Source: Patescibacteria group bacterium
GTDB lineage: Bacteria; Patescibacteriota; Patescibacteriia; UBA1558; GWA2-36-10
Assembly (NCBI GenBank): GCA_041665545.1
Contig: JBAYIQ010000001.1
Location: forward strand, 222,448 to 286,447
Direction: 5' to 3'
Length of the DNA: 64,000 nucleotides
The notes under the pieces are model-generated. The model had not been told where the DNA came from and did not search any database. It saw only the letters and a program-made list of their open reading frames with translations. Numbering within the stretch: the stretch's first letter is position 1; every line of letters starts with the position of its first letter. Below are positions 10,773 to 33,598 of the stretch, one piece after another. A program made the position numbers and the translations under genes.

Positions 10773-10783
10773 ATATCAAGAAA

Positions 10784-13685: not shown

Positions 13686-13703
13686 TTGTCTGATTCATTA
13701 TTT

Positions 13704-14240: not shown

Positions 14241-14366
14241 ATTATTTAATTTTTAATTGTAATTTTTTTAGTAAATATTTATGATAATTTTTTTTACTAG
14301 CCAACCACCCCTTAACATGCTCTATACTAACTACCATTCAGGGGGCTTATTTGGGTCATATAATGC

Positions 14367-15044: not shown

Positions 15045-15090
15045 AATTACGTGGGGCTATAATATTATTTTAAAAACCAACCAATCGTCT

Positions 15091-15711: not shown

Positions 15712-15713
15712 AA

Positions 15714-16625
15714 TTATATTAAATTATTAAATAATATTGAAAATTTTTCTACGCATCCTGGATTAAATATTGAAAAATGATCTCCCTTAATAGGATGAAT
15801 CTTTATGGGATGTTCTGAATATAAATTCCACTCATACTTTCGTTTAACGGGGCTATCATTCGCCTCGAAAAAATGAATATCAGCATTGACCTTACGTGCA
15901 GGCATATAAAATGCCTGAGCATTTGCATCTGTCCTCATAACATTCAAATAGTAAATCAGATCGCGAAAACTAATATTATCAAAATATGGAATTGCCTTAG
16001 CCCTGTCTTCGGGAATATCCTGCTTAATAACCTCCATCAAAGCACTTTGATATTTAGACATACCAAACATTTCAACAAAAATCTTCCACATATGTTCTTT
16101 ATTGTAACATAATTCATTGTTTATATTAGTAGACTTGATTTGTGATAACCACTTATGAATTAATATTTTTTCTGTCCCCAAATCAAAGCGTGACTTTTTA
16201 TTTGGATTTTTATTCGGTTCAAGTAATGCATAATCATTAACCATGTTTATCATCTGTTTGTCATCAATAATTGGTGGCGCAGAATTAATTATCGACAAAA
16301 AATCAATTTTTTCACCAATTGATTCAAGTTGTAATGCAATTTCAAATGCCCTCACCCCTCCAAAACACCAACCTGCCAATAAATATGGCCCACAGGATTG
16401 AATTTTTTTAATTTGCTTCAAATAAGATCTTGCCATTGACGAAATAGATCTATTTTTAGGAGAAAAATCATTAAACCTATCGGCTCTTAACCCCCAACAA
16501 TTTATTTCCGATGAAAAAGATGAGCAAAACAAAACATAATGCTGAATTTCACCATTTCCTGCGTGAATTAAAAATAAATTTTTATTTGAATTCGTTCCCT
16601 TTTTGAGAAAAACGACATTATTCAT
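15714..16625 (-). CDS. Type II thioesterase-like alpha/beta hydrolase with a Cys in the nucleophile position (GWCFGG instead of GxSxG)
   Basis: 303 aa. The pattern LFLIHAGNGE ... GPYLLAGWCFGGVRAFEIALQLESIG matches the thioesterase-domain consensus GPYxLxGxSxGGxxAxExAxxLE, but with Cys replacing Ser. Confidence 0.65.
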   Translation of the reverse strand: MNNVVFLKKGTNSNKNLFLIHAGNGEIQHYVLFCSSFSSEINCWGLRADRFNDFSPKNRSISSMARSYLKQIKKIQSCGPYLLAGWCFGGVRAFEIALQLESIGEKIDFLSIINSAPPIIDDKQMINMVNDYALLEPNKNPNKKSRFDLGTEKILIHKWLSQIKSTNINNELCYNKEHMWKIFVEMFGMSKYQSALMEVIKQDIPEDRAKAIPYFDNISFRDLIYYLNVMRTDANAQAFYMPARKVNADIHFFEANDSPVKRKYEWNLYSEHPIKIHPIKGDHFSIFNPGCVEKFSILFNNLI

Positions 16626-16626
16626 T

Positions 16627-18456
16627 TTATTTTTGGTTTTTAATTATATACTCAGCTTGTTTTTCTATTGTAGGTAAGTTTATAATATCATTAATGGCGA
16701 CATCAATCTTGAATTTATTTTGTAATTCTAAAGCCAATGAAGTCAACAATAATGAATTTCCGCCCACCTTGCTAAATTCTGTCTTAGTACCACAAACATC
16801 AATATTTAACAATTTTTTCCAAATTTTTACTATATTACGCTCTACTGCATTCTTTGGTTTAACATTTTTTTCTTCTCCAAAATTAGGTTTAAAGGTATCC
16901 ACAATAAATTTTCGATCAATCTTTCCAGTGGCGGTTAATGGCACGCTGTCAAGTTGATAAAAATAAGTTGGAATCATATAAGACGGTAATGTTTTTAGCA
17001 AATATTCTTTTATTAAATCTGAACTTACAGATTTATTACCCTTAGTAGTATAGTAAGCAATAATTTGAGATTCTTTTTCTTCGTGTATAATCGGCATCAC
17101 AACACTCTTATCAATAAAATAAAAATTATCTATTACGGATTCAATTTCATTCAATTCTATTCTATACCCTTTAATTTTAATTTGAAAATCATTCCTTCCC
17201 AGAAATTCAATCGGCCCACCAACCATTTTCCTACCCAAATCTCCTGTCTTAAATACTCTGCCTCGCTTCGTCACTGGATCAGTTATAAATACCGCATTAG
17301 TCTTTTCTTGCTGATTTAAATAACCTAACGCAAGATAATCGCTCTTATAAACTAACTCGCCAATTTCACCATTTTTGACCTCCCGACCATTATTATCCAA
17401 AAGATACACTTTGGTATCTTCTACCGGATAACCAACGGGAACGGTAGCCTGATTTATTTTGGTGGTTTTATCAATAAAGTACTGCAGAGTAACTGTGGAT
17501 TCAGTTGGCCCCAATCCATTAATAAAAACGCAGTTATCATTGAAATGCAATTTATAAGCTTCAACATCATTTATTAAAACTGACTCTCCTCCCATTACCA
17601 CCAACCGGACACTATCCATTAAATTTTTTTCCTTTATATTGCTAATAAAATAACGATATAAGGTTGGAACTGAGTGAAAAATAGTTATTTTTTCTTTTCC
17701 AATCCAAGCGGTTAATTTTTCGACTGCACCTAATTCCTTCATGTCGTAAGGATACAATGTTGCCCCATTTAATAAGGCACCAAAGATATCCATAATAGAT
17801 GCATCAAAACCATATGTTGAGAATAAGGTAAGTTTATCAAAGGGACTAATTTCTAGATTATTAGTATACGTACGGATAAAATGTAAAACATTGCGGTGAT
17901 TTTGAATAACACCCTTTGGTTTTCCTGTTGATCCTGAAGTATATAATATATAAGCACATTGAGAAGGGTCTATCATTATCCCTAAATTTTTCGCTTCTTC
18001 CTCATTATCAAGTTCATCCACATTAATGATAAAAACCCGCTTATTTGGCAAATCAATCGTGAGACTTTTGGCTAAATTATAGTTAAGATTATTGGTCAAA
18101 ATAATATCCCCACCTGAATCAGAAACTATATACTCAAGTCGATCTAACGGATGAGCAGGATCAAGAGGAACATAAGCATTCCCTGATTTAAGAACAGCTA
18201 TAATTGCAATAATCATTTGAAAATCATGTTCGAATAATAAATATACTCGCTGAGAAATTCCTTCTTTATTGTACTTTAATATTTGATTGGCAACTATATT
18301 CGCTTTATTATTAAGCTCTTGATAAGAAAGGACACGAGTCTTAGTTACTATAGCATTCTTAATTGAAAAATCGGCAACCTGATTTTCAAATCGGGTTACT
18401 ATGGATTGATTTATTTCTTCTTTAGGAAATTGATTATTATTCTTATTTATTTTCAT
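16627..18456 (-). CDS. Stand-alone NRPS-like adenylation plus peptidyl-carrier (A-T) didomain protein
   Basis: 609 aa. Adenylation motifs A3 YTSGSTGKPKGV, A4 FDAS, A5 NGLGPTESTV, A7 FKTGDLG and A8 GRNDFQIKIKGYRIELNEIE, plus a C-terminal carrier motif FSKVGGNSLLLTSL (phosphopantetheine-binding Ser). Confidence 0.85.
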   Translation of the reverse strand: MKINKNNNQFPKEEINQSIVTRFENQVADFSIKNAIVTKTRVLSYQELNNKANIVANQILKYNKEGISQRVYLLFEHDFQMIIAIIAVLKSGNAYVPLDPAHPLDRLEYIVSDSGGDIILTNNLNYNLAKSLTIDLPNKRVFIINVDELDNEEEAKNLGIMIDPSQCAYILYTSGSTGKPKGVIQNHRNVLHFIRTYTNNLEISPFDKLTLFSTYGFDASIMDIFGALLNGATLYPYDMKELGAVEKLTAWIGKEKITIFHSVPTLYRYFISNIKEKNLMDSVRLVVMGGESVLINDVEAYKLHFNDNCVFINGLGPTESTVTLQYFIDKTTKINQATVPVGYPVEDTKVYLLDNNGREVKNGEIGELVYKSDYLALGYLNQQEKTNAVFITDPVTKRGRVFKTGDLGRKMVGGPIEFLGRNDFQIKIKGYRIELNEIESVIDNFYFIDKSVVMPIIHEEKESQIIAYYTTKGNKSVSSDLIKEYLLKTLPSYMIPTYFYQLDSVPLTATGKIDRKFIVDTFKPNFGEEKNVKPKNAVERNIVKIWKKLLNIDVCGTKTEFSKVGGNSLLLTSLALELQNKFKIDVAINDIINLPTIEKQAEYIIKNQK

Positions 18457-18740
18457 AGTTTACTCAGTTTCTAGAATCTAGCTTAATAGCACTGTTAACT
18501 AGTTGATTAAAAACTTGGTGGGTATTTTTAAAAACTCAGAACTTATCTGATTAACCCGCTGGTATTTTCATTAGCACCTCGTCCCCAGGGGCTTCTTAAA
18601 TAAGTAAAATAAACCCTGGCTCTTGTTGATATTAATAAACGGTTTGTTTTGAGCCATTGCTCTACCTTGAAGTTCCATGAGATTATCATACAGCCGTCTA
18701 TATGATTATAGCCGTCTATTTACACACTTTCATTATAGAC

Positions 18741-18768
18741 CAAACAAAAAAGCTGTCAAGAGACAGCT
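18741..18768 (-). terminator. Rho-independent terminator for the histidine kinase gene
   Basis: Stem agctgtc/gacagct (18751-18768) with a 4-nt loop. On the minus strand it is followed by tttttgtttg. Confidence 0.5.
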
Positions 18769-18794
18769 AAAAATCACTAAATTTTTTCTTTTAG

Positions 18795-21605
18795 CTAAGA
18801 CTGCATTTCTTCTTTATTCGGCTCACCGCCACTGACTGGTATCACAAACTGGAAAATACTCCCCTTTTCTTTGCCAGCACTCTCTACCCATATTTGACCA
18901 CCATGCTCTTTGATAATCTTCTGAGCGATGAATAAGCCCAAACCAGAACCACCAGTGTGAATCTGCGCCGCGCCACTAGCGCGCACAAATTTTCTAAATA
19001 AATTTTTGGCTTCCTCGGGGTCTATACCAATACCAGTATCTTGCACTTGGAAATGAAAATTTTCACCTTCAATAAAAGCGCTAACTTCAATCTGCCCTTT
19101 GGGCGTATATTTTATGGAATTATCAATCAAGTTCAAAATCACTTCGCGCAATTTATCAGAATCAGCGGCCACCAATGGCAAGGCCGGCTTTGATTTTTTG
19201 TAAATCAACTTCACGCCTTTTTTGTCTGACTCATTGTGTAGCTCGGCAATGACACTATCAATCATGTCGCTAATCTGCAAGGGCTTTTTTTCTATTTTTA
19301 ATCTTCCGGACTCAATGCGCGACACATTCAAAAATATATTGACCAAGCGAGCCAAGCGAGCGGCGCTTTCAAATAAATCTTTGATTACTTTGCCAACTTT
19401 TGGCGTTACCGGCCCAAAATCTCCATCAGAAATCATAGACAAGTAGCCCTTAAGCGCTGAAATTGGTGTGCGCAACTGGTGAGAAGCAATGGACAAAAAC
19501 TCTGATTTGGCTTGATCCAACTCGCGCAAGCGCATATTAGCAATTTGCAAATCTTGATTGGTTGTTTGTAAATTATTATATAAGCGCAAGTTTCTGGACA
19601 CAATGCCCACTTGGCTGGTCAGAGCCGTCATGGTGTCTAAATCCAGTGAAGTCACTTTTGATTTTTCTACAGCCAACAAAAAATGAATAATACCAATTAT
19701 TTTATCTTCCGAAAAAATTGGAAAGCCAACTATTGCTTTGACCCCCAAGGCCTCCTGCACTTTATCCATGACCAACTTATCAACTGGAGGTGAAAAGAAA
19801 TCCGACATTTTGTCAGAATCATTTCTTGTTCCGGATAATACTGTCTTGACGCCCAAAGAATAGCCCGCCTCTAATTTGGCTTCAAACTTTTTGGGATCCT
19901 GCCCCAAAATTTGCGTCACTAGTTTAGTCTGTTCACTCTCTGTGATTGCCCCAATACGTAAAACATTGGTTCGCTCATCCACAAAGCTCAAAACACCACC
20001 TACATAGCCAAACTCAGAATAAATACTGTTAGCAATCATTTGATTAATCTGCTTGAGGTCCATGGTGCGACCTACTTTATTGGTCACGGCCTGCATGGCT
20101 GTCAAAAACTTATTGCGTTGTTCTAGACCTACATTTGCTATTTTTAAACTTTTTGTCTTAGCATCAACCTTGACTTGCAAGTCACGCTTTTGTAACTGAA
20201 CTTCTTCGTAGAGTTTGGACTTCTCAATTGCTGTGGCAATTTGGGGAGTCAAAATTTTCAAAAAATTAATGTCGTCTTGACTGTAAAGATCGCCAGAGCT
20301 TTTTGCAGAAAAAAATAACATTGAAGTTAAACTCCCATCTTCTCCAGAAACGGGAACTATCATCTCTATTTTTAAATTTTCTGCCTCTTGAATAAAATTA
20401 CCTAAAATTTTATAATAAGGAACTTCTGAGCTTATATTACTATGGTCTCTTATTAATTCCTCAACGATAATAAGTTCCTTTTTATTTATGATAAATTGAA
20501 TAAAATTTATATTAAACTTTGGAGGGGCACTATCTAGTTGAGAGCTGGCTATTAATATCCATTCCCCATTTTTTAATATTAATGACGAAATTAATCTAAT
20601 TTTTAACTGATCAGACAACAAATTGACTAAAGCCAATGAAAATTTAGCCAAATCAATCTCTTTGGCAACTACCGAACTAGCTTTCTGAAGTAACTTCTGA
20701 TAATCTACCCTGTTCTTATAAAATATACGGTCGGTCAAACGAGCAAAAATACTCTTCAAGGGGTCAAGAGTCAAGACGATAACTAAAGAAGTTACAACAA
20801 AAATTATTGCATTGCCGGACTGGTTTTCTCTGCTCAAGTATGTTCCTGATAAAAAAACCACCATTGCAAAAAATGATGCAAACAAAGCTACCAAAATTCC
20901 GTATAAAACACTTCTAATCAAAACTAAACGAATGTCCATTAATCTGTACTTAACAATCGCATATGTGGTAAATCCTACCATGAAGATAGTTAAAACTTGC
21001 CCAGACCAATTAATTGTGAAAATGCCAAACCAAGGTAACAATAAATTAGATATAAAAGCTAAATTGCTGGATAGTAAATAACCAGAAAAAACATATTTTA
21101 CCTGCAATTTTTTTAACCCCTCAAGTTTTTTAATCTTACTATTAAGATTATAAAAAGCTTGAAAAAAGTGGTAGAAAAAATAAACTACATACAAAATATA
21201 CAACTTACCAAAATATATAATGTTTTCACCGTCAACAACTGTTTTAGCACTAAATATAATTCTATCCGTAAAAAGAATCATACCGTTTATAAGTATAAAA
21301 AAAACGGATACAAATATTATGTATTTCGGGTTAAGTTTCCCGCCCTCTGGAAAAACGATTGAAAAAAACAAAAAAGCTGGTGATGTAAACGTCGCAAACA
21401 CATACAATAGTTTGCATAAAAAAACTATATTAGCTTGATCAGAAAGTCTATACAATATCATCCCTGTACCCCAAAATATAATAGCTACAATAACAAATAA
21501 ATAACTTCTATTTACGGATGCATGTTTATTATTTTTATATATAAAATAACCTAATAATATATTAAGGATAAGTACAACTAAAATGATTATATTAATGTAA
21601 TCCAT
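18795..21605 (-). CDS. Sensor histidine kinase with N-terminal multi-TM (HisKA_7TM-like) domain, GAF-like region, HisKA and HATPase_c
   Basis: 936 aa. N-terminus is multi-pass. H-box EFLSIASHQLRTPISALKGY. C-terminal ATPase G-boxes (GIGIDPEE, GGSGLGLFIAQKI). Confidence 0.8.
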   Translation of the reverse strand: MDYINIIILVVLILNILLGYFIYKNNKHASVNRSYLFVIVAIIFWGTGMILYRLSDQANIVFLCKLLYVFATFTSPAFLFFSIVFPEGGKLNPKYIIFVSVFFILINGMILFTDRIIFSAKTVVDGENIIYFGKLYILYVVYFFYHFFQAFYNLNSKIKKLEGLKKLQVKYVFSGYLLSSNLAFISNLLLPWFGIFTINWSGQVLTIFMVGFTTYAIVKYRLMDIRLVLIRSVLYGILVALFASFFAMVVFLSGTYLSRENQSGNAIIFVVTSLVIVLTLDPLKSIFARLTDRIFYKNRVDYQKLLQKASSVVAKEIDLAKFSLALVNLLSDQLKIRLISSLILKNGEWILIASSQLDSAPPKFNINFIQFIINKKELIIVEELIRDHSNISSEVPYYKILGNFIQEAENLKIEMIVPVSGEDGSLTSMLFFSAKSSGDLYSQDDINFLKILTPQIATAIEKSKLYEEVQLQKRDLQVKVDAKTKSLKIANVGLEQRNKFLTAMQAVTNKVGRTMDLKQINQMIANSIYSEFGYVGGVLSFVDERTNVLRIGAITESEQTKLVTQILGQDPKKFEAKLEAGYSLGVKTVLSGTRNDSDKMSDFFSPPVDKLVMDKVQEALGVKAIVGFPIFSEDKIIGIIHFLLAVEKSKVTSLDLDTMTALTSQVGIVSRNLRLYNNLQTTNQDLQIANMRLRELDQAKSEFLSIASHQLRTPISALKGYLSMISDGDFGPVTPKVGKVIKDLFESAARLARLVNIFLNVSRIESGRLKIEKKPLQISDMIDSVIAELHNESDKKGVKLIYKKSKPALPLVAADSDKLREVILNLIDNSIKYTPKGQIEVSAFIEGENFHFQVQDTGIGIDPEEAKNLFRKFVRASGAAQIHTGGSGLGLFIAQKIIKEHGGQIWVESAGKEKGSIFQFVIPVSGGEPNKEEMQS

Positions 21606-21609
21606 TTGA

Positions 21610-22713
21610 CTAAGATAAAATATATTTTAAATAATCATCACTAATTGGTCTACCGAAAGATCTAAATCGTGCCGGTTCTATGCCAATGACATTCGCCATT
21701 TTTTTTATCCTAATAATTTGTTCCTTATTTGTATCGCCTATTGTGGTGCAATTACTATCTAATGCGGCAAGCGTTATTAATTCTCCCATACAGCTAAATA
21801 TATCCCCATCATCTGTTAACCCTAAATCAAAATTATATTTAATATTTTTATAATTACAAACACCACCCTCTATAACCAATGTCCGATGATTTTTAGAATT
21901 AATTTTTTTTGATGCATTTAGTGGTTGTGCATCATCTATAATAATTGTCCCCTCCTTCAACATGTTGCTAGATTGTATTATAGAGTAAGGTGCGTTTGTG
22001 GCTGTAATAATTATATCGGCTTTTTTTATAATATCTAATGAGCTACTATAACTTAAAATTTTTTCCGACGATAAATTAAATTTACTTTTTAATTTTTCCA
22101 TATCTTTGTCAACCAAAATAAACTTTTTAAAATGGTCAGTTAAGACTGCATAACATGAGGAGCCAATTGAACCCGCGGCCCCAACAATACCAATTGTTAA
22201 TTCTTTGCTAGTCAAATTTTTCATTCTTATTGCATTATTTGAAACCACCCATGCCGTGTAAGAATGTCCCGTTGTTAATCTACAATTAATTTTATCTTTA
22301 ATATCTAAACCATTTCTAGTAAATGACGCACTCAGTGCTCCTAAACCAATGATCTTGGCTCCTAATTTTTCAGCAAACTTTGCTGCTTTAAGAATTTTTT
22401 TTGTGGCCAACTCTCTATTTTTAGTCATGTCCGAAGCATCCATTGGTGACCCAATAAACAAGCCCCTCTTTTCAATATTACTATATTTAAGGCCGTATAT
22501 GTAACTCAGTCTTATTGGAAATAAATATTTACCTATAAAACTTAATATTTTGTATGGAACTCGATTATTAAGCAAGGAAAATTTCCTATTGAGATCGTGA
22601 TAATCCCTAGAATGCACAATGAAAACATAGTCTGCAGAAATATTTAACTTTTTAACCAATTTAATTGAGATATTCTTTGGCAAAAAATTTATAAAAAAAT
22701 CAATCAACAACAT
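21610..22713 (-). CDS. Putative NAD(P)-binding oxidoreductase; family not resolved
   Basis: 367 aa with Rossmann-type glycine motif IGIVGAAGSIGSS in the central region. Confidence 0.35.
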   Translation of the reverse strand: MLLIDFFINFLPKNISIKLVKKLNISADYVFIVHSRDYHDLNRKFSLLNNRVPYKILSFIGKYLFPIRLSYIYGLKYSNIEKRGLFIGSPMDASDMTKNRELATKKILKAAKFAEKLGAKIIGLGALSASFTRNGLDIKDKINCRLTTGHSYTAWVVSNNAIRMKNLTSKELTIGIVGAAGSIGSSCYAVLTDHFKKFILVDKDMEKLKSKFNLSSEKILSYSSSLDIIKKADIIITATNAPYSIIQSSNMLKEGTIIIDDAQPLNASKKINSKNHRTLVIEGGVCNYKNIKYNFDLGLTDDGDIFSCMGELITLAALDSNCTTIGDTNKEQIIRIKKMANVIGIEPARFRSFGRPISDDYLKYILS

Positions 22714-22740
22714 AATCTTATATTTAATAAAATGTATTCG

Positions 22741-23613
22741 TTAATAATATTTAGTAACCTTTGCAATATGTGGCATTTCGGATTTAAATTTATTCTTTTT
22801 GTGCATTTCTAATACAGCGTCAACGATAAATAAGTTTTTATTTTCATTATTTCTTAAAAAGCCAAAACTAGTAATATCTTGTATTTGCTTAGCACTATAG
22901 CCCTGATCTTTCGCCTCAATTATTATTTCTGCTTCTAAATAACTAAAACCCAATTCATCTTCGTCTGTTTGATTTTTCCAGAGACCAGCGGTTGGTGCCT
23001 TACTTATAATATTATCTGGCACATTCATAAATGAAGCAATTTCTCTAACGTGCCGCTTTGACAAATCGCCAATCGGACTTATGTCAACCTGTCCATCTCC
23101 CCTTTTAGTAAAATAGCCCAAAGCATAATCCTCGTCCTTATTACCTGTTCCCAATATTAAACTATCTAGAGCGGCAGCATATCTAGACAAAATAATTGCC
23201 CTAATTTCGCTTGCAACATTACCTTTATCATAATTATTCCTAACAATACCCTTCAATAAACCACAAAAAGATTCAATTATTGATGATATATCAATGACTT
23301 TATAATCAATGGCTAATGTTTTAGCAATATTAATGCCAATTTTAGTATCATTAATATTGTTAGTACTAGAAGGCATTATTAATCCACACAAAGACAATTC
23401 TTTTTTACCATTTTTATATTTATAATCATCAAATGCTGCTTTTGCTAAATAAGCCACTGTCGTAGAGTCAACTCCACCACTCAAACCAATAACCCCGCCC
23501 TTTTTATTAGCATTTTTTATTTCATCTACTATAAAATTCTGTATCTCCTGAGCAACAATTGCCGTTTTAATTTTGGGCAATTTAATTTTTTTTTCTATCT
23601 TTTCTAAATTCAT
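22741..23613 (-). CDS. nadE: NH3-dependent NAD+ synthetase
   Basis: 290 aa with PP-loop GLSGGVDSTT. Size fits single-domain NadE. Confidence 0.7.
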   Translation of the reverse strand: MNLEKIEKKIKLPKIKTAIVAQEIQNFIVDEIKNANKKGGVIGLSGGVDSTTVAYLAKAAFDDYKYKNGKKELSLCGLIMPSSTNNINDTKIGINIAKTLAIDYKVIDISSIIESFCGLLKGIVRNNYDKGNVASEIRAIILSRYAAALDSLILGTGNKDEDYALGYFTKRGDGQVDISPIGDLSKRHVREIASFMNVPDNIISKAPTAGLWKNQTDEDELGFSYLEAEIIIEAKDQGYSAKQIQDITSFGFLRNNENKNLFIVDAVLEMHKKNKFKSEMPHIAKVTKYY

Positions 23614-23640
23614 ACTATATACAAAAAATAACCAATTTAT

Positions 23641-25362
23641 TTATACAATATACTTATTTAAAATATTCTTTCTTCTCAACTTCAACGTAATAGTCAACAT
23701 TCCATTCTCCACACTAAATTCCTCAGCAATTAACTTAAAACTACTAATTTTTTCATTTTTTGACAGATCTTTTAACGATTCGTCAATGATCTGTGTATAA
23801 AGATTTTTCACAGCGCTCAGCTCCAATACTTCTGGTAATTTAAACTCTATATTTGCCTGTTCACACCACTTTTTTAATTCAGCCATATCTGGAACAATAA
23901 AAGCTGACAAAGCTTTTTGCTTGTCGCCATAAACCATGCTTTGGCTAATATATTTGCTGGCGTTTAAGTCATACTCTATTGGCTCAGGAAAAATATTTTT
24001 GCCAGTTGACAACACTATCACATCTTTGGCTCGACCAATGATGGTCAAAAATCCATCATTATCAAAAAAACCCAAATCTCCAGTGCGTAGCCAAGCATCG
24101 GCGTCAAAAGCTTCCTGGCTCAATATTTCATTGTCATAATAACCAGACATCACATTATCGCCTTTGAGCAATATTTCTTTTTCCGATGACAACTTAATTT
24201 GATTGCAAACCAAAGGCAAACCCACTGTGCCAAATTTATAATTATCCGGATGATTGACCGCCACTATTGGCGAGGCCTCGGTCAAGCCATAGCCCTCAAT
24301 CAGCTTCAAGCCCAAGCTATCAAAAAATTTGGCAATAGCTGGATTGAGCGAAGCTCCACCGGAGATAGCCAAGCGTAATTTACCACCCAAAATACTCCTT
24401 ATTTTCTTAAGTACCAAATAGTCTAAAATCTGATACTGCCATTTTTCTATAAAATTAAGCTGTCTTTTTTTCTTGGCATCAACCAAATTTAAGGTGCGAT
24501 AAAATAATTTTTTTTTAAAATTACTACCGCTCTTGATTTGATCAAAAACTTTGGCGTATATTTTTTCAAATATTCTAGGTACACAAGGCAAAACAGTGGG
24601 CTGAACCAACTTAATATCATCAATCATGGTCTTGGCGCTCACTGCGTAATAAATACTACAACCCGTAAAAAGCGGGCTATAATAGCCAGCCATTCTTTCA
24701 AAAGCATGTGACAAGGGCAAAAAGGAAAAAAATTTATCACTTTCGTAGATTGGTACATTGCGTCGGGCTGATTGAGCATCGCTGACTAAATTCTTCTGCG
24801 AAAGCATCACACCTTTGGGGTCACCCGTAGTCCCAGAGGTATAGATAATAGTATGCAAATCATCTTCCTGAGAAATAGCTTCAATATCAACTAATTTACT
24901 CTTATCAAAAACTGGCCAAGGCAATACTCTTTTATCCTCAATGTCTTGTGTCAGACCAACTACATATATTTCTTTGAGTGGTAAAGATAAGATGTTATTT
25001 TTATATTTGGCAAACAATTCTTGATTAATCAATAAATATTTAGCACCAGAATGATTAACTATGGTTTCCAAATATTTTTCTGGATAAGTATAGTGCACGG
25101 GCACTAAAACTAAACCCAAAGTAGCCACGGCCAGATCGGCCATGACCCACTCCGCACTATTGGGCAACATGACGGCTATTTTTTCACCCCTCACATAGCC
25201 CTTTTTTTGCCAATATTCGGCCAACTGACTGCGCAAATTGTTGAGCTCTTGATAACTAATTGTTTGATACTGACCTTGAACCAAAAAACCCAAAGCCGGA
25301 CGCAGACCAAAATCGCGAACTACTTCCAGAAAATTAGCAATGATTGTGCTGGACATAGGCAA
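23641..25362 (-). CDS. Long-chain fatty acid--CoA ligase (AMP-binding family)
   Basis: 573 aa with AMP-binding motif YTSGTTGDPKGV and C-terminal ligase core. Confidence 0.8.
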   Translation of the reverse strand: MPMSSTIIANFLEVVRDFGLRPALGFLVQGQYQTISYQELNNLRSQLAEYWQKKGYVRGEKIAVMLPNSAEWVMADLAVATLGLVLVPVHYTYPEKYLETIVNHSGAKYLLINQELFAKYKNNILSLPLKEIYVVGLTQDIEDKRVLPWPVFDKSKLVDIEAISQEDDLHTIIYTSGTTGDPKGVMLSQKNLVSDAQSARRNVPIYESDKFFSFLPLSHAFERMAGYYSPLFTGCSIYYAVSAKTMIDDIKLVQPTVLPCVPRIFEKIYAKVFDQIKSGSNFKKKLFYRTLNLVDAKKKRQLNFIEKWQYQILDYLVLKKIRSILGGKLRLAISGGASLNPAIAKFFDSLGLKLIEGYGLTEASPIVAVNHPDNYKFGTVGLPLVCNQIKLSSEKEILLKGDNVMSGYYDNEILSQEAFDADAWLRTGDLGFFDNDGFLTIIGRAKDVIVLSTGKNIFPEPIEYDLNASKYISQSMVYGDKQKALSAFIVPDMAELKKWCEQANIEFKLPEVLELSAVKNLYTQIIDESLKDLSKNEKISSFKLIAEEFSVENGMLTITLKLRRKNILNKYIV

Positions 25363-25466
25363 TTAAACAACTATATTTTAACACAAATAGCCCACTATAT
25401 ACAATAGTTAGAAAAAACAAAAAACCCCACATTACGGGGTTCTTTACTAATTGATTAAATAATCTA

Positions 25467-27175: not shown

Positions 27176-27991
27176 TTAAGCGTCAAAACTATCGCTATTT
27201 TCCTTAATAAAACGAGTAATTTTTTCAAAAACTAAATCATTTCTAGTTTTGTGAATCAAGTGATGATTTTCCTTATCCAAGATATAAAGCTCTTTATTTT
27301 TATGTTTGATCTGTTCAAAAAACCATTGGGAACTATACACTTGAGAAACCCGATCATTTCGGGAGTGGATGATTAGGGCCGGAATACGCACCTGATGACC
27401 TTCTTTTTTGGTAAAATTATCAATAAATTTGTAGAAATTTTTTATACTGGCTATTGGCAAATACAAATGTCTACCTAATTCTTTGATCTGACGCACATCC
27501 TGCACATCTATCCATCTTTTTTTGTATTTGTTAGTAACTAGAGCGGCTAGGGGCAGAAAAAAACGAATTACTTTTTCTTTCCACAAAAAAACTGGCAAGC
27601 TGATGGTCACCACTCCTCTGAGCTGAGGGTAGTGCGCGGCCAGATGCACAGCAACATTACTGCCAAATGATTCGCCAATCACAAAAATATTTTTGTAACG
27701 GGATAAATTTTTGTGCAATACTTTTTCGGCTGACTGGTACCAATCCAAGGCCGTGCTTTTTTGCAGAGCTTTGAAATCCCGACCATGTCCAGCCAACAAA
27801 ACTGTTTCCGTATCTATACAATGACCGGATAAATATTCGGCTAAATCATGAAAAATATAGGGCGAGCTAGAAAAGCCATGAATCAAAATAGCCAAAGTGT
27901 TATTGGACTCAGCGTGGATGACAAAGGGTTGGGCTTTGGGTGAAACATCCGGTAAAAAAGTAAAGTGTTTACTGACAACAGATTTTTCCAT
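27176..27991 (-). CDS. Alpha/beta hydrolase (esterase/lipase family)
   Basis: 271 aa with GxSxG nucleophile elbow GESFG. Confidence 0.65.
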   Translation of the reverse strand: MEKSVVSKHFTFLPDVSPKAQPFVIHAESNNTLAILIHGFSSSPYIFHDLAEYLSGHCIDTETVLLAGHGRDFKALQKSTALDWYQSAEKVLHKNLSRYKNIFVIGESFGSNVAVHLAAHYPQLRGVVTISLPVFLWKEKVIRFFLPLAALVTNKYKKRWIDVQDVRQIKELGRHLYLPIASIKNFYKFIDNFTKKEGHQVRIPALIIHSRNDRVSQVYSSQWFFEQIKHKNKELYILDKENHHLIHKTRNDLVFEKITRFIKENSDSFDA

Positions 27992-27993
27992 AA

Positions 27994-28575
27994 TTATTTT
28001 TTGATTTTAAACTTAGTCGACAAATAGTTTTGCCACTCTTTATCATTATCCATCAAGCCCTGTATTTGTTGTCTCAATAAAGTGGCTTTGTCTATTTTGG
28101 TAGATGCGCTTTTCCAATCCAAATATTCATTGATCTTGCGTGACAAACGTAAAGTATATTTGATGTTGTATAGTTCGGCCAAATTTTCCTGCCCCAAAGA
28201 TTCTAGAAAGTTGGCTACTTTTTCCAAAGCATTCTGGTTCTGATAACGCTCCAGGCGCATTTTCTTGGCTACTGTTTTGTCCACCAATAAATGCTCCAAG
28301 GCCTGATCAATTTTGGCACCAGCTGGCAACAAACACAAAATATCTTTATTCTTGGACACGGCCCAAGCCAGCCAATAGCCACCCTGAGCATCTAGTCGCT
28401 GGCCATAAATCACCAAGGCATCTACTTTGTCCATTGGCAAGCTGGTGGCATCAGAGCTGGCTTTTTTGGTGGAGGTTTCACTGATGACAGTGGCTCCGAC
28501 GCGACGCAAATACTGCAAAATTTGCTGACTATTTTGATCCGTATCGCTGGTGTTGCTGTAAAAATAAATATGCAT
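27994..28575 (-). CDS. Hypothetical protein
   Basis: 193 aa ORF tightly packed between neighbours. No recognisable motif. Confidence 0.4.
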   Translation of the reverse strand: MHIYFYSNTSDTDQNSQQILQYLRRVGATVISETSTKKASSDATSLPMDKVDALVIYGQRLDAQGGYWLAWAVSKNKDILCLLPAGAKIDQALEHLLVDKTVAKKMRLERYQNQNALEKVANFLESLGQENLAELYNIKYTLRLSRKINEYLDWKSASTKIDKATLLRQQIQGLMDNDKEWQNYLSTKFKIKK

Positions 28576-28587
28576 AAATTTTCTATC

Positions 28588-29553
28588 TTATATTAGTTCG
28601 CCAATAAAATTCTGTTGGCCGATTTGCTCAAAAGAAGCAATCTTATCCTTGTTGGCCATGGCCCACATGGCCTTGGCCATGGCTGATTCAAAAGTGCAAG
28701 CTGTCATGATTATTGCTTCATCAGGACCGTGTACCTGAATAGGGTGATAAAGAAATACTGGAATTTTAGAATCTTTGATTTGTTTTATTTTGGCTGGCTC
28801 TAGTTTGTTTTGGTGATTGAGCTTGATAAACAAAGCATCATAATTATTCTGTTCAAAATTTGTTAGCCAAGTAAGGCCCGGTAAATCGTCAAAAACAAAA
28901 ATATTGGCTTTGATTTTATTGTAAATCTTTGGTTTTCCAGTGTGATAGCCAAGGCCAGATTTGACGCTAATACCAAAATCTACTCGACCCCAATAGTTAT
29001 CATCAATGCTAGCAAATAAATTTAAGCCCGTATCCTTGTCACAAGTGGCACGCACTCCCGGAATAAGCCGAGTGCCAAACATAATAGCTGGCGTAGGCAA
29101 ACTGTAATCCAACACTTGAAAAGCATTTATTAAATTGGAGCGCAAACCCAAATCGTTTTTTTGACCAACAATATTTTTGCTTAGCTCAGCTGTGCCACTA
29201 CGAATGGCTGAGGTCAAAACCACTGTCTTTTTTATATTCTGCAGTAAAAAACTTAAGGCGTTGGCCGTCATTAATAGCTGGTCTGAGCGCGAAACAACCA
29301 CAAAACCACTGCTAGAGTCCAAGCGTTCAGCAATCTGCTTGGCCATTTCTTGCCAATGTTCCGGTGTCAAAATACTGTCTTCTGGGGCAATAAAAATCGG
29401 CTCCACTTCGGCTAATAACCTAAGCTCGGGCATTTGCTTGAGCCAGATTTCAATATCATCAGGACTCTGGATAGTAAGCAACCTTTTGTTCTGATCAAGT
29501 AAAGCTGTGCCACCAGCCAACAACAAAGTAATTTTTTTTCTTACTTTAGTCAT
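28588..29553 (-). CDS. L-asparaginase/GatD-like family protein; probable start at the internal Met (MTKVRKK)
   Basis: Motif LLLAGGTAL resembles the asparaginase TGGT signature. The first 13 residues of the track ORF overlap the upstream gene. Confidence 0.45.
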   Translation of the reverse strand: MTKVRKKITLLLAGGTALLDQNKRLLTIQSPDDIEIWLKQMPELRLLAEVEPIFIAPEDSILTPEHWQEMAKQIAERLDSSSGFVVVSRSDQLLMTANALSFLLQNIKKTVVLTSAIRSGTAELSKNIVGQKNDLGLRSNLINAFQVLDYSLPTPAIMFGTRLIPGVRATCDKDTGLNLFASIDDNYWGRVDFGISVKSGLGYHTGKPKIYNKIKANIFVFDDLPGLTWLTNFEQNNYDALFIKLNHQNKLEPAKIKQIKDSKIPVFLYHPIQVHGPDEAIIMTACTFESAMAKAMWAMANKDKIASFEQIGQQNFIGELI

Positions 29554-30241
29554 TGATTTTTTCTTTAGGAGAAATAATAAAACCAAAAACAACTAGATTA
29601 ATAAATAGAGTAAATAATGGGCCCATGTGAATGGAAGTAAAATTATCTTTATACATGGAAAATAGATTAAAGTAACTACCAAAAGCAGTACCCATGATAA
29701 CTCCGAATAAAACCAAGCCGATTTGGGTTCTAAATATCCCGTCTGATTTTATATATTTATCGACTAGAAAATAGATTGCTGAAAAAATTACTAAAACCAT
29801 GAAAATAGTATATATTATATAACCAGCATTATTATAAGTTGCAAAATTTATTGATCCAATTCGGACGCTATCTACAAAATAATTGTAGCCAAATATAGTA
29901 TATATAATAATTAAAATACTAACAATATTTATTAACCATTTAAATAATTTATTTATTTGAATTTTTTTATAAGGAAAATAGAGAGAAAAGTAGAATAAAA
30001 AAACTATAACTAACCAGGCCATGGTGTATGGTAGACTAGAGAAAAATCTCAAAGCATCTTCGCTTAAGCTAATATTATAAAAAACTAAGCTAGCAGACCA
30101 GAGAAAAACAAAAAATGTCATCAAACTAAAATATAAATTTATTTTATTTTTTTGGCCACGAAAAAAAACAAACAAACTCATGCCTAAATTTGTCAAACCA
30201 GTAATTGATAAAATTAAATTTTGTGAGTCAGTTAAAATCAT
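29546..30241 (-). CDS. Stand-alone 7TM sensor-like membrane module, tandem paralog 1 of 3
   Basis: 231 aa multi-pass membrane protein sharing the N-terminal pattern (GL.NL.M.FFVF.RG..NKINLYF.L.TFF.F.W) and C-terminal ISPKEKI with the two neighbours and with the N-termini of 31671-33056 and the kinase at 18795-21605. Confidence 0.6.
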   Translation of the reverse strand: MILTDSQNLILSITGLTNLGMSLFVFFRGQKNKINLYFSLMTFFVFLWSASLVFYNISLSEDALRFFSSLPYTMAWLVIVFLFYFSLYFPYKKIQINKLFKWLINIVSILIIIYTIFGYNYFVDSVRIGSINFATYNNAGYIIYTIFMVLVIFSAIYFLVDKYIKSDGIFRTQIGLVLFGVIMGTAFGSYFNLFSMYKDNFTSIHMGPLFTLFINLVVFGFIISPKEKIND

Positions 30242-30245
30242 ATCT

Positions 30246-30944
30246 TTAATTACTTATTTTTTCTTTAGGGGAAATAACAAAAAACACAACTATGAAATTC
30301 ATTAAAACCGTAAAAATTGGGCCAAGCCAATCAAACCTATAATCATTAAAATATTCAATAAATAAATCAAAATAACTCCCAAATGCCAATCCAATAATAA
30401 TCGCAAACAACAACATTTTAATTTGCTGCTTTACCACGCCCTCTGCCAACTTATATTTTCTGAATAATTTACATAAAGCCCAAACTGCCACTATAACAAA
30501 ATAAACGGCATAAAGAAAAAATCCCGCCTCATTGTAATAAGAAATATACTCATAATTGCTATAGGCCCTAACCGTCTCCGTGATAAATCCCTTGGTATAA
30601 ATAAAAAATGATAAAATTATCGCCATCAATAAAATAAGAAAATGATAACTTTTTTTTAGTTTTTCAATTTGGTAGGGAAAGTGATGAACAAAATAAAATA
30701 AGGAAATAACAATTGCTAACGCGGAAACATAAGTGCTCCTAGCAAACAAACCAACCAAATTTATATCTGAAATCGAGCGTGAGATTAATAGTCCCAAACT
30801 CCAAGTAAAATTAAAAAAGGTCAGTAAACTAAAATATAAATTTATTTTATTTTTTATACCTCGTCTAAAAACAAAAAAAGTCATAAACAAATTAACCAGA
30901 GCAGCAATCAATAAAATAAAATTTTGAGTTGAAAAAATTATCAT
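30246..30944 (-). CDS. Stand-alone 7TM sensor-like membrane module, tandem paralog 2 of 3
   Basis: 232 aa. Same architecture and conserved termini as paralog 1. Confidence 0.6.
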   Translation of the reverse strand: MIIFSTQNFILLIAALVNLFMTFFVFRRGIKNKINLYFSLLTFFNFTWSLGLLISRSISDINLVGLFARSTYVSALAIVISLFYFVHHFPYQIEKLKKSYHFLILLMAIILSFFIYTKGFITETVRAYSNYEYISYYNEAGFFLYAVYFVIVAVWALCKLFRKYKLAEGVVKQQIKMLLFAIIIGLAFGSYFDLFIEYFNDYRFDWLGPIFTVLMNFIVVFFVISPKEKISN

Positions 30945-30948
30945 ATCT

Positions 30949-31644
30949 TTAATTACTTATTTTTTCTCTAGGGGAAATGATGAAATAAAATACTACCGCA
31001 TTCATAAACAAAGTGAACACCGGACCAAACCAAGCATAATGATAATTAGCAAAATAACAAAGTATCAAATCAAAGTAAGCGCCAAAAACCAAACCTATCA
31101 AAATAGCAATAAATAATATTAAAGTTTGTTTTTTGAAATAAATGTCTGGCATTTTAATTTTGCGATACAAGTTTAGTAGAGCTAACCCAGCCACAAAAAT
31201 AAAATAAACCCCATATAAAATATAAAACGGCTTGTTTACATACAGCGTGTATTCATTTCTGGCTAAATCTTTGGTAAAGCTCAATACAAACGCTCCTTTT
31301 GTATAAACGATTATTGATAAAATAAAGGCTGGGGCTAAAAGCACCAGATCATAAATTTTTTTATTTTTACTAGTTTGTAATGGAAAATATTTGGAAAAAA
31401 AGTAGAGCGACAAGGATATCCCCAAGGCAATGGGATAAGCCAAAAGTGCTCCGCCATAAAACCAAAAGTTAATATTTTCACCCATTCGAGCAATCAATAT
31501 TGTCATGGTCCACAGAAAATTAAAAAAAGTAAGCAGACCAAAATACAAGTTTATTTTATTATTAAAACCACGGCTAATAACCACAAAAAACATCATTAAA
31601 TTAACCAAGCCCGCAATCAATAACAATAAATTTTCTATACTCAT
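30949..31644 (-). CDS. Stand-alone 7TM sensor-like membrane module, tandem paralog 3 of 3
   Basis: 231 aa. Same architecture, ending ISPREKISN. Confidence 0.6.
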   Translation of the reverse strand: MSIENLLLLIAGLVNLMMFFVVISRGFNNKINLYFGLLTFFNFLWTMTILIARMGENINFWFYGGALLAYPIALGISLSLYFFSKYFPLQTSKNKKIYDLVLLAPAFILSIIVYTKGAFVLSFTKDLARNEYTLYVNKPFYILYGVYFIFVAGLALLNLYRKIKMPDIYFKKQTLILFIAILIGLVFGAYFDLILCYFANYHYAWFGPVFTLFMNAVVFYFIISPREKISN

Positions 31645-31670
31645 ATTTATTAATTAATATTGAAAAATAA

Positions 31671-33056
31671 TTATTTTTCTTCCTTATTAGCCATGGCCTG
31701 CTGATAAAGCAACAAACTGCCAATGGCAATATCCAAATATTTGTTCACTTCCTTCAAAAAATCCAGTTGCTGTTGGTAAATCAGCTTTTTATTGTTATCC
31801 AGCATGACTACTCCCAAAAGCTGATTATTATAGTATATTGGGAAAGATATGTCAATATGATGATTAACCAGCTCTTGGCTCAGCTGGGGATCAAGCCCCA
31901 AGTAGTGCACTTCTGGACTATGAAGTAAATCTTGATTTTTAGCCAAATATTTTAAAAGCAAATCCTGCTCCATGTGCAGTGTGCGCTCGCCCACTGGAAA
32001 TACTTGGTGGAAAAAATTAGCATCCCCACGCTTGGACAAATAAATAAATATTTCTTTGTAATCAATCACTTGGGCAATTTCTTTGGACAGTGATGACATC
32101 AATCTATTGAGATCACGACTAGAGCGCAAGATCACGGCAATATTATTTTGCGCTTGAATTATTCTCTCCAAAGGATGATAAATAAAAAACTTAGCCGCCA
32201 CACTGGCTAGACCAAATAAAATAGGTGCGGTCAAACCAAAAAATATCAAAAACAAAATACTATTTATGCTGCGAGAAAAATCCACCTGTACTGGCCCGCT
32301 GAGTACTAAATACAGCAAAGCATAAACCAAGCCAGTCAAAAGCAAGCGCACCAAGTTGACCAAGGTTTTGTAAAAACTTATTTTCAAATCCAAAAAGCGG
32401 TAGCGAAACAAAGCATACACCACAATAGCGGTAAATATCACGCTACTATTAACTCCCAGATAATAAAACTCCACCACTCCCAAAAGTGGTAAGAAAAAAA
32501 TAAAAATCAAAGCCGAGATAGCGGTCAAAGCCGTGGCCACAAAAATATAGTCAATTTGCTTTTTGACTATCTGATCATAGCGACTGCGCTGACGAATCAA
32601 CACTACCAGGCCCCAAGACATGAGGGTGAGAAAATAGGCCGCAAAATAAAAATAAATCGGCCCTGGTACATAAGCGACACTGTTTTGGCCGACGACAATA
32701 CTGCTGACATTATATTTGCTAAAAACAAAGGGCGACATGATATAAGCGGGCAAGAAAAAAAGATGCTGTTTGCTGCGAACTTTTTTCCAACCATCAACCA
32801 GTAAGTAGCTAAGCCAGACAAAGACCGGGGCAATATACAGTGTTGGCAATAAACCAGCGCGCACTCCCAGTAGCAAGGATTGACTGCGTAATAAAAATAA
32901 AATATTAAACAGTTCACTGCTCTGCCATAGCCACAACAAAAAAACCATGATGAAAATTGGCCAGCGCCTTTGCTTATTTTTGTTGAGGAGTATAAAAAAC
33001 AACAAGCCCAGATTGATCAGCCAAACTACTGCTAAAATTAAAGTATCTAGTGTCAT
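31671..33056 (-). CDS. 7TM sensor-like membrane domain fused to a C-terminal GAF-like cytoplasmic domain; no kinase domain
   Basis: 461 aa. Multi-TM N-terminus related to the three tandem paralogs, with a roughly 160 aa soluble C-terminus. Confidence 0.55.
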   Translation of the reverse strand: MTLDTLILAVVWLINLGLLFFILLNKNKQRRWPIFIMVFLLWLWQSSELFNILFLLRSQSLLLGVRAGLLPTLYIAPVFVWLSYLLVDGWKKVRSKQHLFFLPAYIMSPFVFSKYNVSSIVVGQNSVAYVPGPIYFYFAAYFLTLMSWGLVVLIRQRSRYDQIVKKQIDYIFVATALTAISALIFIFFLPLLGVVEFYYLGVNSSVIFTAIVVYALFRYRFLDLKISFYKTLVNLVRLLLTGLVYALLYLVLSGPVQVDFSRSINSILFLIFFGLTAPILFGLASVAAKFFIYHPLERIIQAQNNIAVILRSSRDLNRLMSSLSKEIAQVIDYKEIFIYLSKRGDANFFHQVFPVGERTLHMEQDLLLKYLAKNQDLLHSPEVHYLGLDPQLSQELVNHHIDISFPIYYNNQLLGVVMLDNNKKLIYQQQLDFLKEVNKYLDIAIGSLLLYQQAMANKEEK

Positions 33057-33120: not shown

Positions 33121-33145
33121 ATAGAAAAATCAACCCGACGAGTTG
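33118..33145 (-). terminator. Terminator-like hairpin downstream of the tRNA locus
   Basis: Minus strand has caactcgtcgggttg followed by atttttctattt. This hairpin is related to the hairpins at 33584-33598 and 60758-60772. Confidence 0.4.
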
Positions 33146-33192
33146 AAAATAGAAAGCCCAGGTATCCGACGATGACCTGGGCTCGATAGAAT

Positions 33193-33268
33193 TGGAGCGA
33201 GTAACTGGATTCGAACCAGCAACCTCTTCCATAGCATGGAAGTGTTCTACCAGCTGAACTATACCCGT
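33193..33268 (-). tRNA. tRNA gene with encoded CCA and anticodon GCU (Ser-type anticodon), but a class I structure with a 5-nt variable loop and tRNA-Gly-like acceptor features
   Basis: Minus strand reads ACGGGTA-TA-GTTC-AGCTGGTA-GAAC-A-CTTCC-ATGCTAT-GGAAG-AGGTT-GCTGG-TTCGAAT-CCAGT-TACTCGC-T-CCA. All invariant positions are present (U8, A14, G18G19, A21, U33, T54T55C56, A58, C61). The acceptor stem pairs 6 of 7, with A1 and C72 mismatched. Pairs C2-G71 and G3-C70 and discriminator U73 are present. Confidence 0.6.
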
Positions 33269-33445
33269 TCCAACTTAGCTTGAAACGCTGGCGGGAGGGA
33301 TTGATACCTCATGATGTGCCCTGGACTTGGACACTGCGGGGGTTTGGAGGGAGAAAGTGCAGTGGAAGTCCATAGGCGGCCGCCAGCGTATTCGGGAACA
33401 AATGATTGCTCACTACCCTAAAATACTAACACTGACAGTTTTTTT
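33269..33445 (-). ncRNA. Candidate structured leader or ncRNA immediately 5' of the tRNA, with its own promoter
   Basis: Minus strand carries TTGACA (RC of 33448-33453), a 16-nt spacer, then TAGTAT. Downstream of this promoter, a long-range 9-bp helix CGCUGGCGG/CCGCCAGCG (plus 33288-33296 with 33400-33408) encloses nested helices UGGACUU/AAGUCCA and CACUGC/GCAGUG and a 21-nt C/U-rich loop containing CCCUCC. Confidence 0.3.
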
Positions 33446-33570
33446 GTCAAGAAAATAGGTATGCCTCCAGTACCAAGAACTAGAGCTTGTTTATTATCTA
33501 GAGTCAACTAATACCACATCTCGCCCCGTAGCGACCCAGCTCCTCGCGAGGAGTTGGGTCGCTTATGGGG

Positions 33571-33598
33571 TCAAATACAAAAACAACCCGACGGGTTG
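33571..33598 (-). terminator. Rho-independent terminator for the aminotransferase gene
   Basis: Hairpin caacccg-t-cgggttg followed on the minus strand by tttttgtattt. Confidence 0.55.

Follow-up and report, generated by a model that had tools for sequence, protein, structure and literature searches.

A glycine-type tRNA gene with a GCU anticodon beside a conserved small RNA in a Patescibacteria lineage

Natural tRNAs with a conflict between body and anticodon are rare; they reveal how translation tolerates or exploits ambiguity. A gene of this kind lies in a Patescibacteria genome, where a GCU anticodon sits in a class-I tRNA with glycine-type features. Does this RNA insert an amino acid at AGY codons, is it a dead gene, or does it act in some other way? 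A preliminary description of the locus had left three readings side by side, namely glycine recoding at AGY, inactivation by an anticodon mutation and a regulatory tRNA-like RNA. We analyzed the gene within a stretch of 64 kb, here called the window, which belongs to a contig of 295 kb (Ga0376277_0000288) from JGI metagenome 3300037810 that is also deposited in NCBI (proteins MFA62528xx). The GC content is 37.7%, and by DnaE similarity the nearest named relatives are Parcubacteria and Komeilibacteria. The reading that we prefer, at a probability of about 0.4, is that of a tRNA-Gly-derived, identity-disabled tRNA-like RNA that would be co-transcribed with a conserved sRNA, belong to a fast-evolving family of tRNA-framed sRNAs and act outside normal decoding. 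The regulatory tRNA-like RNA thus stays the most plausible of the three earlier readings, with an exact role that we infer.

Anatomy and identity elements of the GCU tRNA

ARAGORN, which the preliminary description had named as a check, calls one tRNA in the 64-kb window, a 76-nt class-I gene at 33193..33268 with the anticodon gct; it lies on the minus strand, which had not been given before. The RNA reads ACGGGUAUAGUUCAGCUGGUAGAACACUUCCAUGCUAUGGAAGAGGUUGCUGGUUCGAAUCCAGUUACUCGCUCCA. Infernal aligns it over its full length with the Rfam tRNA family RF00005 at 58.8 bits (E = 3.8e-10; gathering score 29), and this score and the ARAGORN drawing agree with the canonical cloverleaf and complete set of invariant nucleotides that had been described. 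The acceptor stem consists of A1·C72, C2-G71, G3-C70, G4·U69, G5-C68, U6-A67 and A7-U66. The mismatch at 1-72, also noted earlier, is confirmed in the ARAGORN drawing and by cmscan, which flags this pair alone as non-canonical; neither a Watson-Crick nor a G·U pair is formed there. At the 3' end, the discriminator U73 is followed by a genome-encoded CCA. The D arm is GUUC/GAAC with G18 and G19, and the anticodon loop has seven nucleotides, A32-U33-G34-C35-U36-A37-U38 (AUGCUAU). The anticodon G34-C35-U36 lies at 33233..33235 (minus strand), would read AGC and AGU, is flanked in the loop by A32 and U38, and is the same in the related loci L061 and L062. The variable loop, AGGUU, is 5 nt long, and the T arm (GCUGG-UUCGAAU-CCAGU) is canonical. 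All canonical elongator marks are there (U8, A14, G18, G19, U33, G53, the T-loop UUCRANY and C61), and pseudogene marks such as broken stems or missing invariant bases are absent from the window copy and present only in the copy of L061.

The GCU anticodon on a 5-nt variable loop, as originally reported, is borne out by the sequence, ARAGORN and the Rfam alignment. Bacterial SerRS requires the long variable arm of tRNA-Ser. The GCU tRNA lacks such an arm, has U73 and not G73 as discriminator and carries C2-G71. Related Patescibacteria possess a standard tRNA-Ser(CGA) of 92 nt with a long arm and G73 (ending ...CCACCG-CCA), against which the absence of a SerRS-type arm from the window gene is plain, and since the relatives carry this tRNA the SerRS of the group presumably uses the usual long-arm rule. 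Without the arm, SerRS should not charge the GCU tRNA. A genuine tRNA-Ser(GCU), charged by SerRS in spite of its short loop, would fit the abundant AGY serine codons through its anticodon, and ARAGORN indeed labels the gene Ser, from the anticodon alone. The body features just listed speak against it, and the close relative L002 has no such gene, which would be impossible for an essential decoder. We consider this explanation very improbable.

The acceptor end, (A)CGGGUA/UAC(U/C)CGC-U73-CCA, equals that of bona fide tRNA-Gly, GCGGGUA/UACCCGCUCCA, save at position 1. Likewise, a phage tRNA-Gly(UCC) in L059 (GCGGGUA/UACCCGC-U-CCA) matches the acceptor stem of the L061 copy except at position 1. 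G1-C72 and C36 are among the strongest GlyRS determinants in established identity sets. The gene had been credited with the identity set used by GlyRS; U73, C2-G71 and G3-C70 are indeed present, as is C35, but G1-C72 is replaced by A1·C72 and C36 by U36. Other determinants are lost as well, A36 for Cys, G35 for Thr and A20 for Arg, under established identity rules that may not be those of CPR aminoacyl-tRNA synthetases. Judged by the established sets, no synthetase is an obvious match. BLAST against annotated tRNAs in phage, plasmid and E. coli collections is isotype-ambiguous, with Ile, Arg, Asp, Asn and Gly tRNAs tying at ~77%, and an assignment by this route was dropped. The tRNA-Gly(GCC)-like body proposed earlier fits the class-I architecture, the Gly-type acceptor end and the Gly-bodied character of the nearest class-I GCU tRNAs; the BLAST result is ambiguous on this point.

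Position by position, the GCU tRNA shares with bacterial tRNA-Gly(GCC) the class-I body, the acceptor xCGGGNA/UNCCCGC, C2-G71, G3-C70, U73, C35, G49·U65 and C50-G64, and it is ~72-76% identical to Gly-bodied tRNAs. It differs in A1·C72 for G1-C72, U36 for C36, A32/U38, and U51-A63 for the tight-binding G51-C63. Using the T-stem increments of PMC3239215, we predict an EF-Tu affinity of ~-10.2 kcal/mol from G49·U65, C50-G64 and U51-A63, a value that does not count the 1·72 mismatch. The class mean for tRNA-Gly(GCC) is -11.0 kcal/mol (PMC3239215, Table 2 and Table 4), and binding of the GCU tRNA is predicted to be ~0.8 kcal/mol weaker.

Class-I tRNAs with a GCU anticodon occur sporadically elsewhere. 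We found 52 such loci (L005-L056), scattered across phyla, among 185,579 species genomes; those most similar to the window gene are Gly-bodied, with 58/76 identities at best, and none of the 52 is an orthologue. Clean tRNA-Gly(GCC) bodies with a GCU anticodon are seen in Chlorobium (L020), in Thermus (L036) and in L005 and L046, Asn-like forms in Pseudomonas and Lysobacter (L015, L024, L026), and recurrent odd tRNA pairs in Bradyrhizobium and Rhodobacteraceae. Scans of a metagenome collection, which lacks the window's own contig too, gave no homologues. Scans of viral sequences gave no copy of the tRNA, of the sRNA or of the class-II tRNA-like gene described below, and the loosest pattern matched only ordinary phage Asn and Ile tRNAs. 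A literature search retrieved no paper naming both Patescibacteria and "tRNA-like".

Inheritance of the gene and the meaning of AGY codons

Three genomes of the window's clade could be compared. In L061 the same sRNA is followed by a tRNA-like copy, and L062 is the identical sequence from an independent assembly. The first 47 nt of the tRNA, comprising A1, the D arm, the GCU anticodon arm and most of the variable loop, are identical between window and L061 (47/47). The acceptor 3' strand of L061 shows a single difference, C69, which gives G4-C69 where the window has G4·U69, and the copy keeps A1·C72, U73, CCA and the trailer. Its T arm (17 nt) is swapped for another 17-nt hairpin, AUCCC-GUGUUGC-GGGAU, with the non-canonical loop GUGUUGC and C53-G61; this copy scores 36.2 bits with Rfam and receives no ARAGORN call. 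Site-specific integration was considered as a source of the swapped 3' third and rejected, as the window contains no displaced 3' tRNA fragment and the examined loci contain no donor for the L061 hairpin.

The preliminary description had allowed for a sequencing error on a GCC anticodon. The orthologous loci of L061 and L062 carry GCU, not GCC. GCC and GCU differ by one base, which would suit an error in sequencing or assembly of a tRNA-Gly(GCC). Such an error is refuted by independent assemblies of other samples that show this anticodon arm and A1 as well, and the contig is deposited in both JGI and NCBI. We give an artefact practically no weight.

In L002, with 91% identity in the aminotransferase and the synteny of the window, the tRNA is missing. 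CysRS DNA identities of 87.3% (window-L002), 87.5% (window-L061) and 91.9% (L002-L061) make L002 and L061 sisters with the window as their outgroup. From this branching, the pair of sRNA and tRNA(GCU) is ancestral to the clade, with a later deletion of the tRNA in L002 and a replaced T arm in L061. On the same comparison the tRNA gene is dispensable, having been deleted in the L002 sister lineage. Between window and L061, identity is 76.6% at third codon positions of cysS and 90.7% in the sRNA core. The chance of a 47/47 match is ~4e-6 at the neutral rate and ~1% at the rate of the sRNA. Set against these rates, the match indicates that the GCU anticodon and A1·C72 have been under purifying selection for most of the clade's history. 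Inactivation by an anticodon mutation, the second of the earlier readings, is contradicted by the retention of GCU and A1 in the diverged L061 and in independent assemblies.

Decay can be put differently: a redundant tRNA-Gly paralogue may have lost identity and function and be intact in the window by chance, with relatives deleting or scrambling it. The deletion in L002, the destroyed T arm in L061 and the mutation of both key GlyRS determinants are in line with such a relic, and so are the sporadic single-genome class-I GCU tRNAs resembling Gly, Thr or Asn point mutants (the 52 loci). However, the 47/47 identity with L061 persisted through a divergence in which third codon positions changed by 23% and the adjacent sRNA by 9%, which shows constraint during most of this history. 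Furthermore, A1·C72 and GCU are both kept without drift, the cloverleaf and all invariant bases of the window copy are intact, and CPR genomes are compact. A relic is rather unlikely in our view, though a serious contender.

AGY codons are abundant in this genome, with 446 of 1,104 serine codons or 26.5 per 1,000. Eight AGY codons of DnaE fall in strongly conserved columns, and at five of them 95-100% of the aligned residues are Ser (111 homologues at <=73% identity). The sole AGY codon at a conserved column of the aminotransferase aligns with Ser or Asn, never with Gly. Codon 446 of DnaE, an AGC at 50419-50421 (plus strand), falls in a column that is 81% Gly; the AGC is common only to relatives of 96-98% identity, the column also tolerates Asn and Asp, and we judged this single clade-shared GGC-to-AGC change uninformative. 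Among nine orthologue sets, no lineage-specific change from Gly to Ser(AGY) at otherwise all-Gly columns was found in the window genome and one was found in L075, and no excess of AGY at conserved Gly sites was detected. On these alignments, AGY codons clearly encode Ser in this genome and there is no genome-wide recoding; it is ruled out by AGY at Ser columns of the aminotransferase and DnaE. The earlier suggestion of Gly at AGY is refuted in its genome-wide form, and we saw no signature of Gly at these codons.

The GCU tRNA could still be an active missense tRNA, a natural mistranslator comparable to tRNA-ProX, if a synthetase other than SerRS charged it for low, possibly regulated insertion at AGC and AGU. 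Candidates would be GlyRS via U73, C2-G71, G3-C70 and C35, CysRS via U73, G34 and C35, or ArgRS via C35 and U36. The gene has what such a tRNA would need, namely a perfect cloverleaf, U33 and A37, a canonical T loop and an encoded CCA, long-term purifying selection takes in the anticodon, and a strong predicted promoter drives the gene. Dual-identity bacterial tRNAs have a precedent (PMC11415595), and the strand of the tRNA carries a CysRS gene 1.4 kb upstream of it. Yet the main anticodon determinant of each candidate synthetase is wrong under established identity rules (C36 for Gly, A36 for Cys, A20 for Arg), and the broken G1-C72 should weaken EF-Tu binding too. The AGY codons are abundant (at the frequency given above), stand at invariant Ser sites and are not in excess at conserved Gly sites, and the tRNA gene is lost or damaged in sister genomes. 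Nor is there a dedicated synthetase paralogue; the adjacent CysRS is an equivalog that is found in all relatives, including those without the tRNA. Altogether, we deem a missense tRNA unlikely.

The neighborhood of the gene is a minus-strand run of, in order, S2, EF-Ts, PSP1, GAPDH, CysRS, a HisC-like aminotransferase and the intergenic RNA region with the tRNA, followed by four tandem HisKA_7TM-only membrane proteins, an asparaginase-like protein, a 193-aa orphan, an α/β-hydrolase and MetRS. With 428.6 bits, the CysRS clears the cut-off of 340 for the cysS equivalog model, and it occupies the same place in relatives with and without the tRNA; no second synthetase copy and no dedicated paralogue were seen in the window. 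In L061, HisRS follows the slot instead. The block at 27176-33056 (minus strand) holds the four HisKA_7TM-only proteins (one with a GAF domain), the asparaginase/GatD-like protein, the 193-aa orphan and the α/β-hydrolase; it is conserved, with a conserved 5' UTR, CGGACGGCUUAAAU..AAGACGGCG. Its 7TM, asparaginase-like, 193-aa and hydrolase genes gave no PADLOC match and no tRNA-related homology. A functional tie of the tRNA to its neighbors was rejected, as CysRS and the aminotransferase are conserved housekeeping-type genes, the 7TM block lacks tRNA-related homology and HisRS follows the slot in L061.

The upstream sRNA and the predicted precursor

Directly upstream of the tRNA, at 33285..33416 (minus strand), lies a conserved structured sRNA (fold z = -4.1; 91-92% identity in L002 and L061). 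Its fold has a 10-bp closing helix (33380-33389 with 33285-33294) around a hairpin whose 21-nt loop is CU-rich and a second small hairpin. The ~130-nt sequence had no Rfam match at E <= 10, and a 32-codon ORF inside it is not conserved, being interrupted by a stop in L002. The CU-rich 21-nt loop, CUUUCUCCCUCCAAACCCCC, is anti-Shine-Dalgarno-like. A promoter scan identified a sigma-70-type promoter at 33423..33450 (minus strand; TTGACA, a 16-nt spacer and TG-TAGTAT), the predicted driver of the sRNA and probably of the tRNA. All six related loci have a homologous promoter, the version in L067, L070 and L075 being closer to that of L002 than to that of the window.

The preliminary description had regarded this element as a structured leader of the tRNA with its own promoter. 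Structure and promoter-like site are real, but in L002, where promoter and sRNA core are 92% conserved, the sRNA runs into its own terminator and the tRNA is absent. By this comparison, the "leader" is a conserved sRNA gene that is independent of the tRNA and has a promoter of its own. In the window a spacer of 16 nt separates sRNA and tRNA, and the order of sRNA then tRNA recurs in L061. Since promoter and terminator scans gave no promoter-like or terminator-like site between the two in the window, their co-transcription is the natural inference. T-box-like specifier pairing was rejected, the AGC in the spacer not being conserved in L061.

In minimum-free-energy folds of both window and L061, the 5' leader AGUUGGA (-7 to -1; 33269..33275, minus strand) pairs with UCCAAUU (33190..33196, minus strand), that is, with U73-CCA and the first three trailer bases, AUU. 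This helix lengthens the acceptor helix of the precursor by 7 bp around A1·C72. The trailer CCAAUUC(U/C)AUCGAG is kept in L061, and the full 294-nt window transcript folds with z = -6.6. Downstream of the tRNA, sequence, terminator scan and fold reveal two terminator-like hairpins at 33130..33182 (minus strand), GCCCAGG...CCUGGGC with a U-rich tract at 33156-33182 and a second with a U tract at 33130-33146. A further hairpin element of ~107 nt, a long stem with a GCGA cap, is located in the window upstream of the sRNA promoter (~33462-33572) and downstream of the RNA genes in L002 (~5232-5377) and L061 (~7470-7560); each time it adjoins a TTGAC(-35)-like site, and its mobility is MITE-like.

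For the tRNA-like RNA that we prefer, these features suggest the following course. The ancestor would have been of the tRNA-Gly(GCC) type, and three features would have removed its descendant from Gly and Ser decoding: A1 breaks G1-C72, U36 turns GCC into GCU, and a long arm is lacking. With no promoter of its own, the tRNA would form the 3' part of a ~290-nt transcript from the sRNA promoter, in which the 5' leader is predicted to pair with discriminator, CCA and trailer. RNase P and 3' nucleases would then split the sRNA from a tRNA-shaped RNA that is expected to be poorly charged and, through the 1·72 mismatch, a poor EF-Tu ligand. Outside bulk translation, this RNA might serve as a 3'-end or stability module of the sRNA. 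Alternatively, it might be a tRNA mimic or decoy whose strictly conserved D and anticodon arms bind a tRNA-recognizing factor. A pure role in 3'-end processing fails to explain the conservation, because conservation falls on the D and anticodon arms and not on the acceptor/T-arm minihelix for RNase P. What counts against a non-decoding role is that the window copy has all tertiary nucleotides, the T loop and CCA, which are the needs of a working tRNA and go beyond a mere processing signal. In this scheme the gene would belong to a dispensable, fast-evolving cassette of tRNA-framed sRNA genes in this Patescibacteria lineage.

The same slot in relatives and comparable systems

Three more distant loci, L067, L070 and L075, share at least 90% identity with the window in GAPDH and 76-78% in cysS DNA. 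Their slot upstream of the 7TM block has the promoter TTGACAAA-CTATTG-GTGCTA-TAT, homologous to that of L002 and more loosely to that of the window. After CCA they have a common trailer, (A)GUUCUUUC plus a hairpin, whose window counterpart is CCA-AUUCUAUCGAG plus a hairpin. L067 carries a tRNA-like gene (55 bits) with a 10-nt anticodon loop, A73 and CCA. It shares with L075 a second, class-II-shaped tRNA-like gene with the acceptor AACCCCG/CGGGGUU, a long variable arm, a canonical T arm and C73, which is followed by CCA in L067 and by ACA in L075. Stems and T arm of this gene are identical in the two loci, whereas the 13-14-nt "anticodon" loop and the loop of the variable arm differ. The L070 slot holds a CCA-ended mini-hairpin and an irregular tRNA-like gene. 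The "anticodon" loops of these genes (L067 10460-10539 and ~10672-10782; L075 ~10277-10385; L070 10529-10582 and 10612-10712) measure 10-14 nt, and from their predicted structures they could not decode normally. Only the window tRNA has a 7-nt anticodon loop among the members of the slot. We tentatively propose, as an idea that may well prove wrong, that the slot between cysS and the 7TM block houses an undescribed class of Patescibacteria tRNA-framed sRNAs, with a shared promoter and trailer, conserved class I and II scaffolds and variable, specificity-bearing "anticodon" loops of 7-14 nt. The GCU tRNA would be its least-derived member, an identity-neutralized tRNA-Gly frame acting as regulator or decoy and not as adaptor.

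How does the GCU tRNA relate to known systems? The dual-identity tRNA-ProX of Streptomyces and Kitasatospora, which is paired with ProRSx, is conserved across species (PMC11415595). Both are natural bacterial tRNAs in which the body is that of one amino acid and the anticodon that of another, and both are kept across species. Unlike tRNA-ProX, the GCU tRNA has no adjoining dedicated synthetase paralogue, has U33 and G34 where ProX has A33 and A34, has suffered damage to its body's own acceptor determinant too, and is dispensable in sister genomes. We assign the gene to none of the classes tRNA-Ser, tRNA-Gly and ProX-type pair, because it lacks defining features of each.

Two tRNA-shaped RNAs kept out of ribosomal translation resemble the role that we propose. 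The tRNA-Other of Bacillus cereus is a pseudo-tRNA downstream of a T-box and lysK that flanks an island (PMC3399842). The non-proteinogenic tRNA-Gly of Staphylococcus keeps a Gly anticodon, serves Fem transferases and has a weakened EF-Tu interface (PMC3239215). The latter is the closer parallel in being Gly-derived with a weakened EF-Tu interface. The window locus has neither the T-box, lysK and island context of the former nor the Fem context of the latter. Eukaryotes offer a third comparison, the MALAT1-mascRNA arrangement, in which a tRNA-like cloverleaf lies 3' of a non-coding RNA and an RNase P cut makes the 3' end of the upstream RNA. The GCU tRNA likewise is a cloverleaf that follows a non-coding RNA directly on its 3' side, no promoter separates the two, and RNase P would release the upstream RNA. 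It is unlike mascRNA in its fully canonical cloverleaf and encoded CCA, and in a conserved part made up of D and anticodon arms and not of an RNase P minihelix.

The GCU tRNA combines conservation across species-level divergence with the loss of glycine-donor determinants and a probable transcriptional fusion to a conserved sRNA. Should genes of this kind encode functional tRNA-scaffold RNAs, the poorly known RNA biology of the CPR would gain a new kind of sRNA. If the GCU tRNA is charged, it would found a second natural family of bacterial mistranslating tRNAs, one without a dedicated synthetase. As a lead, the wider cassette of tRNA-framed RNAs has more novelty than the GCU tRNA alone.

In the still more distant L003, L004 and L064, the region downstream of the aminotransferase is taken up by another cassette, which in L003 and L064 includes a canonical tRNA-Ser(CGA). 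Between aminotransferase and tRNA-Ser(CGA) of these two lies a conserved structured element, AGGAGGAGUGCC...CAUUUACGGGGCA (L003 7030-7113; L064 1170-1243). Elsewhere in the window, NRPS-like genes at ~13700-25400 (minus strand) encode two AMP-binding enzymes, of which one has a carrier domain, together with a PPTase, a thioesterase and a GATase. The first ~7.8 kb contain a giant toxin gene of the RHS/TcdB/SpvB type. Both are unexpected for a small-genome Patescibacteria MAG.
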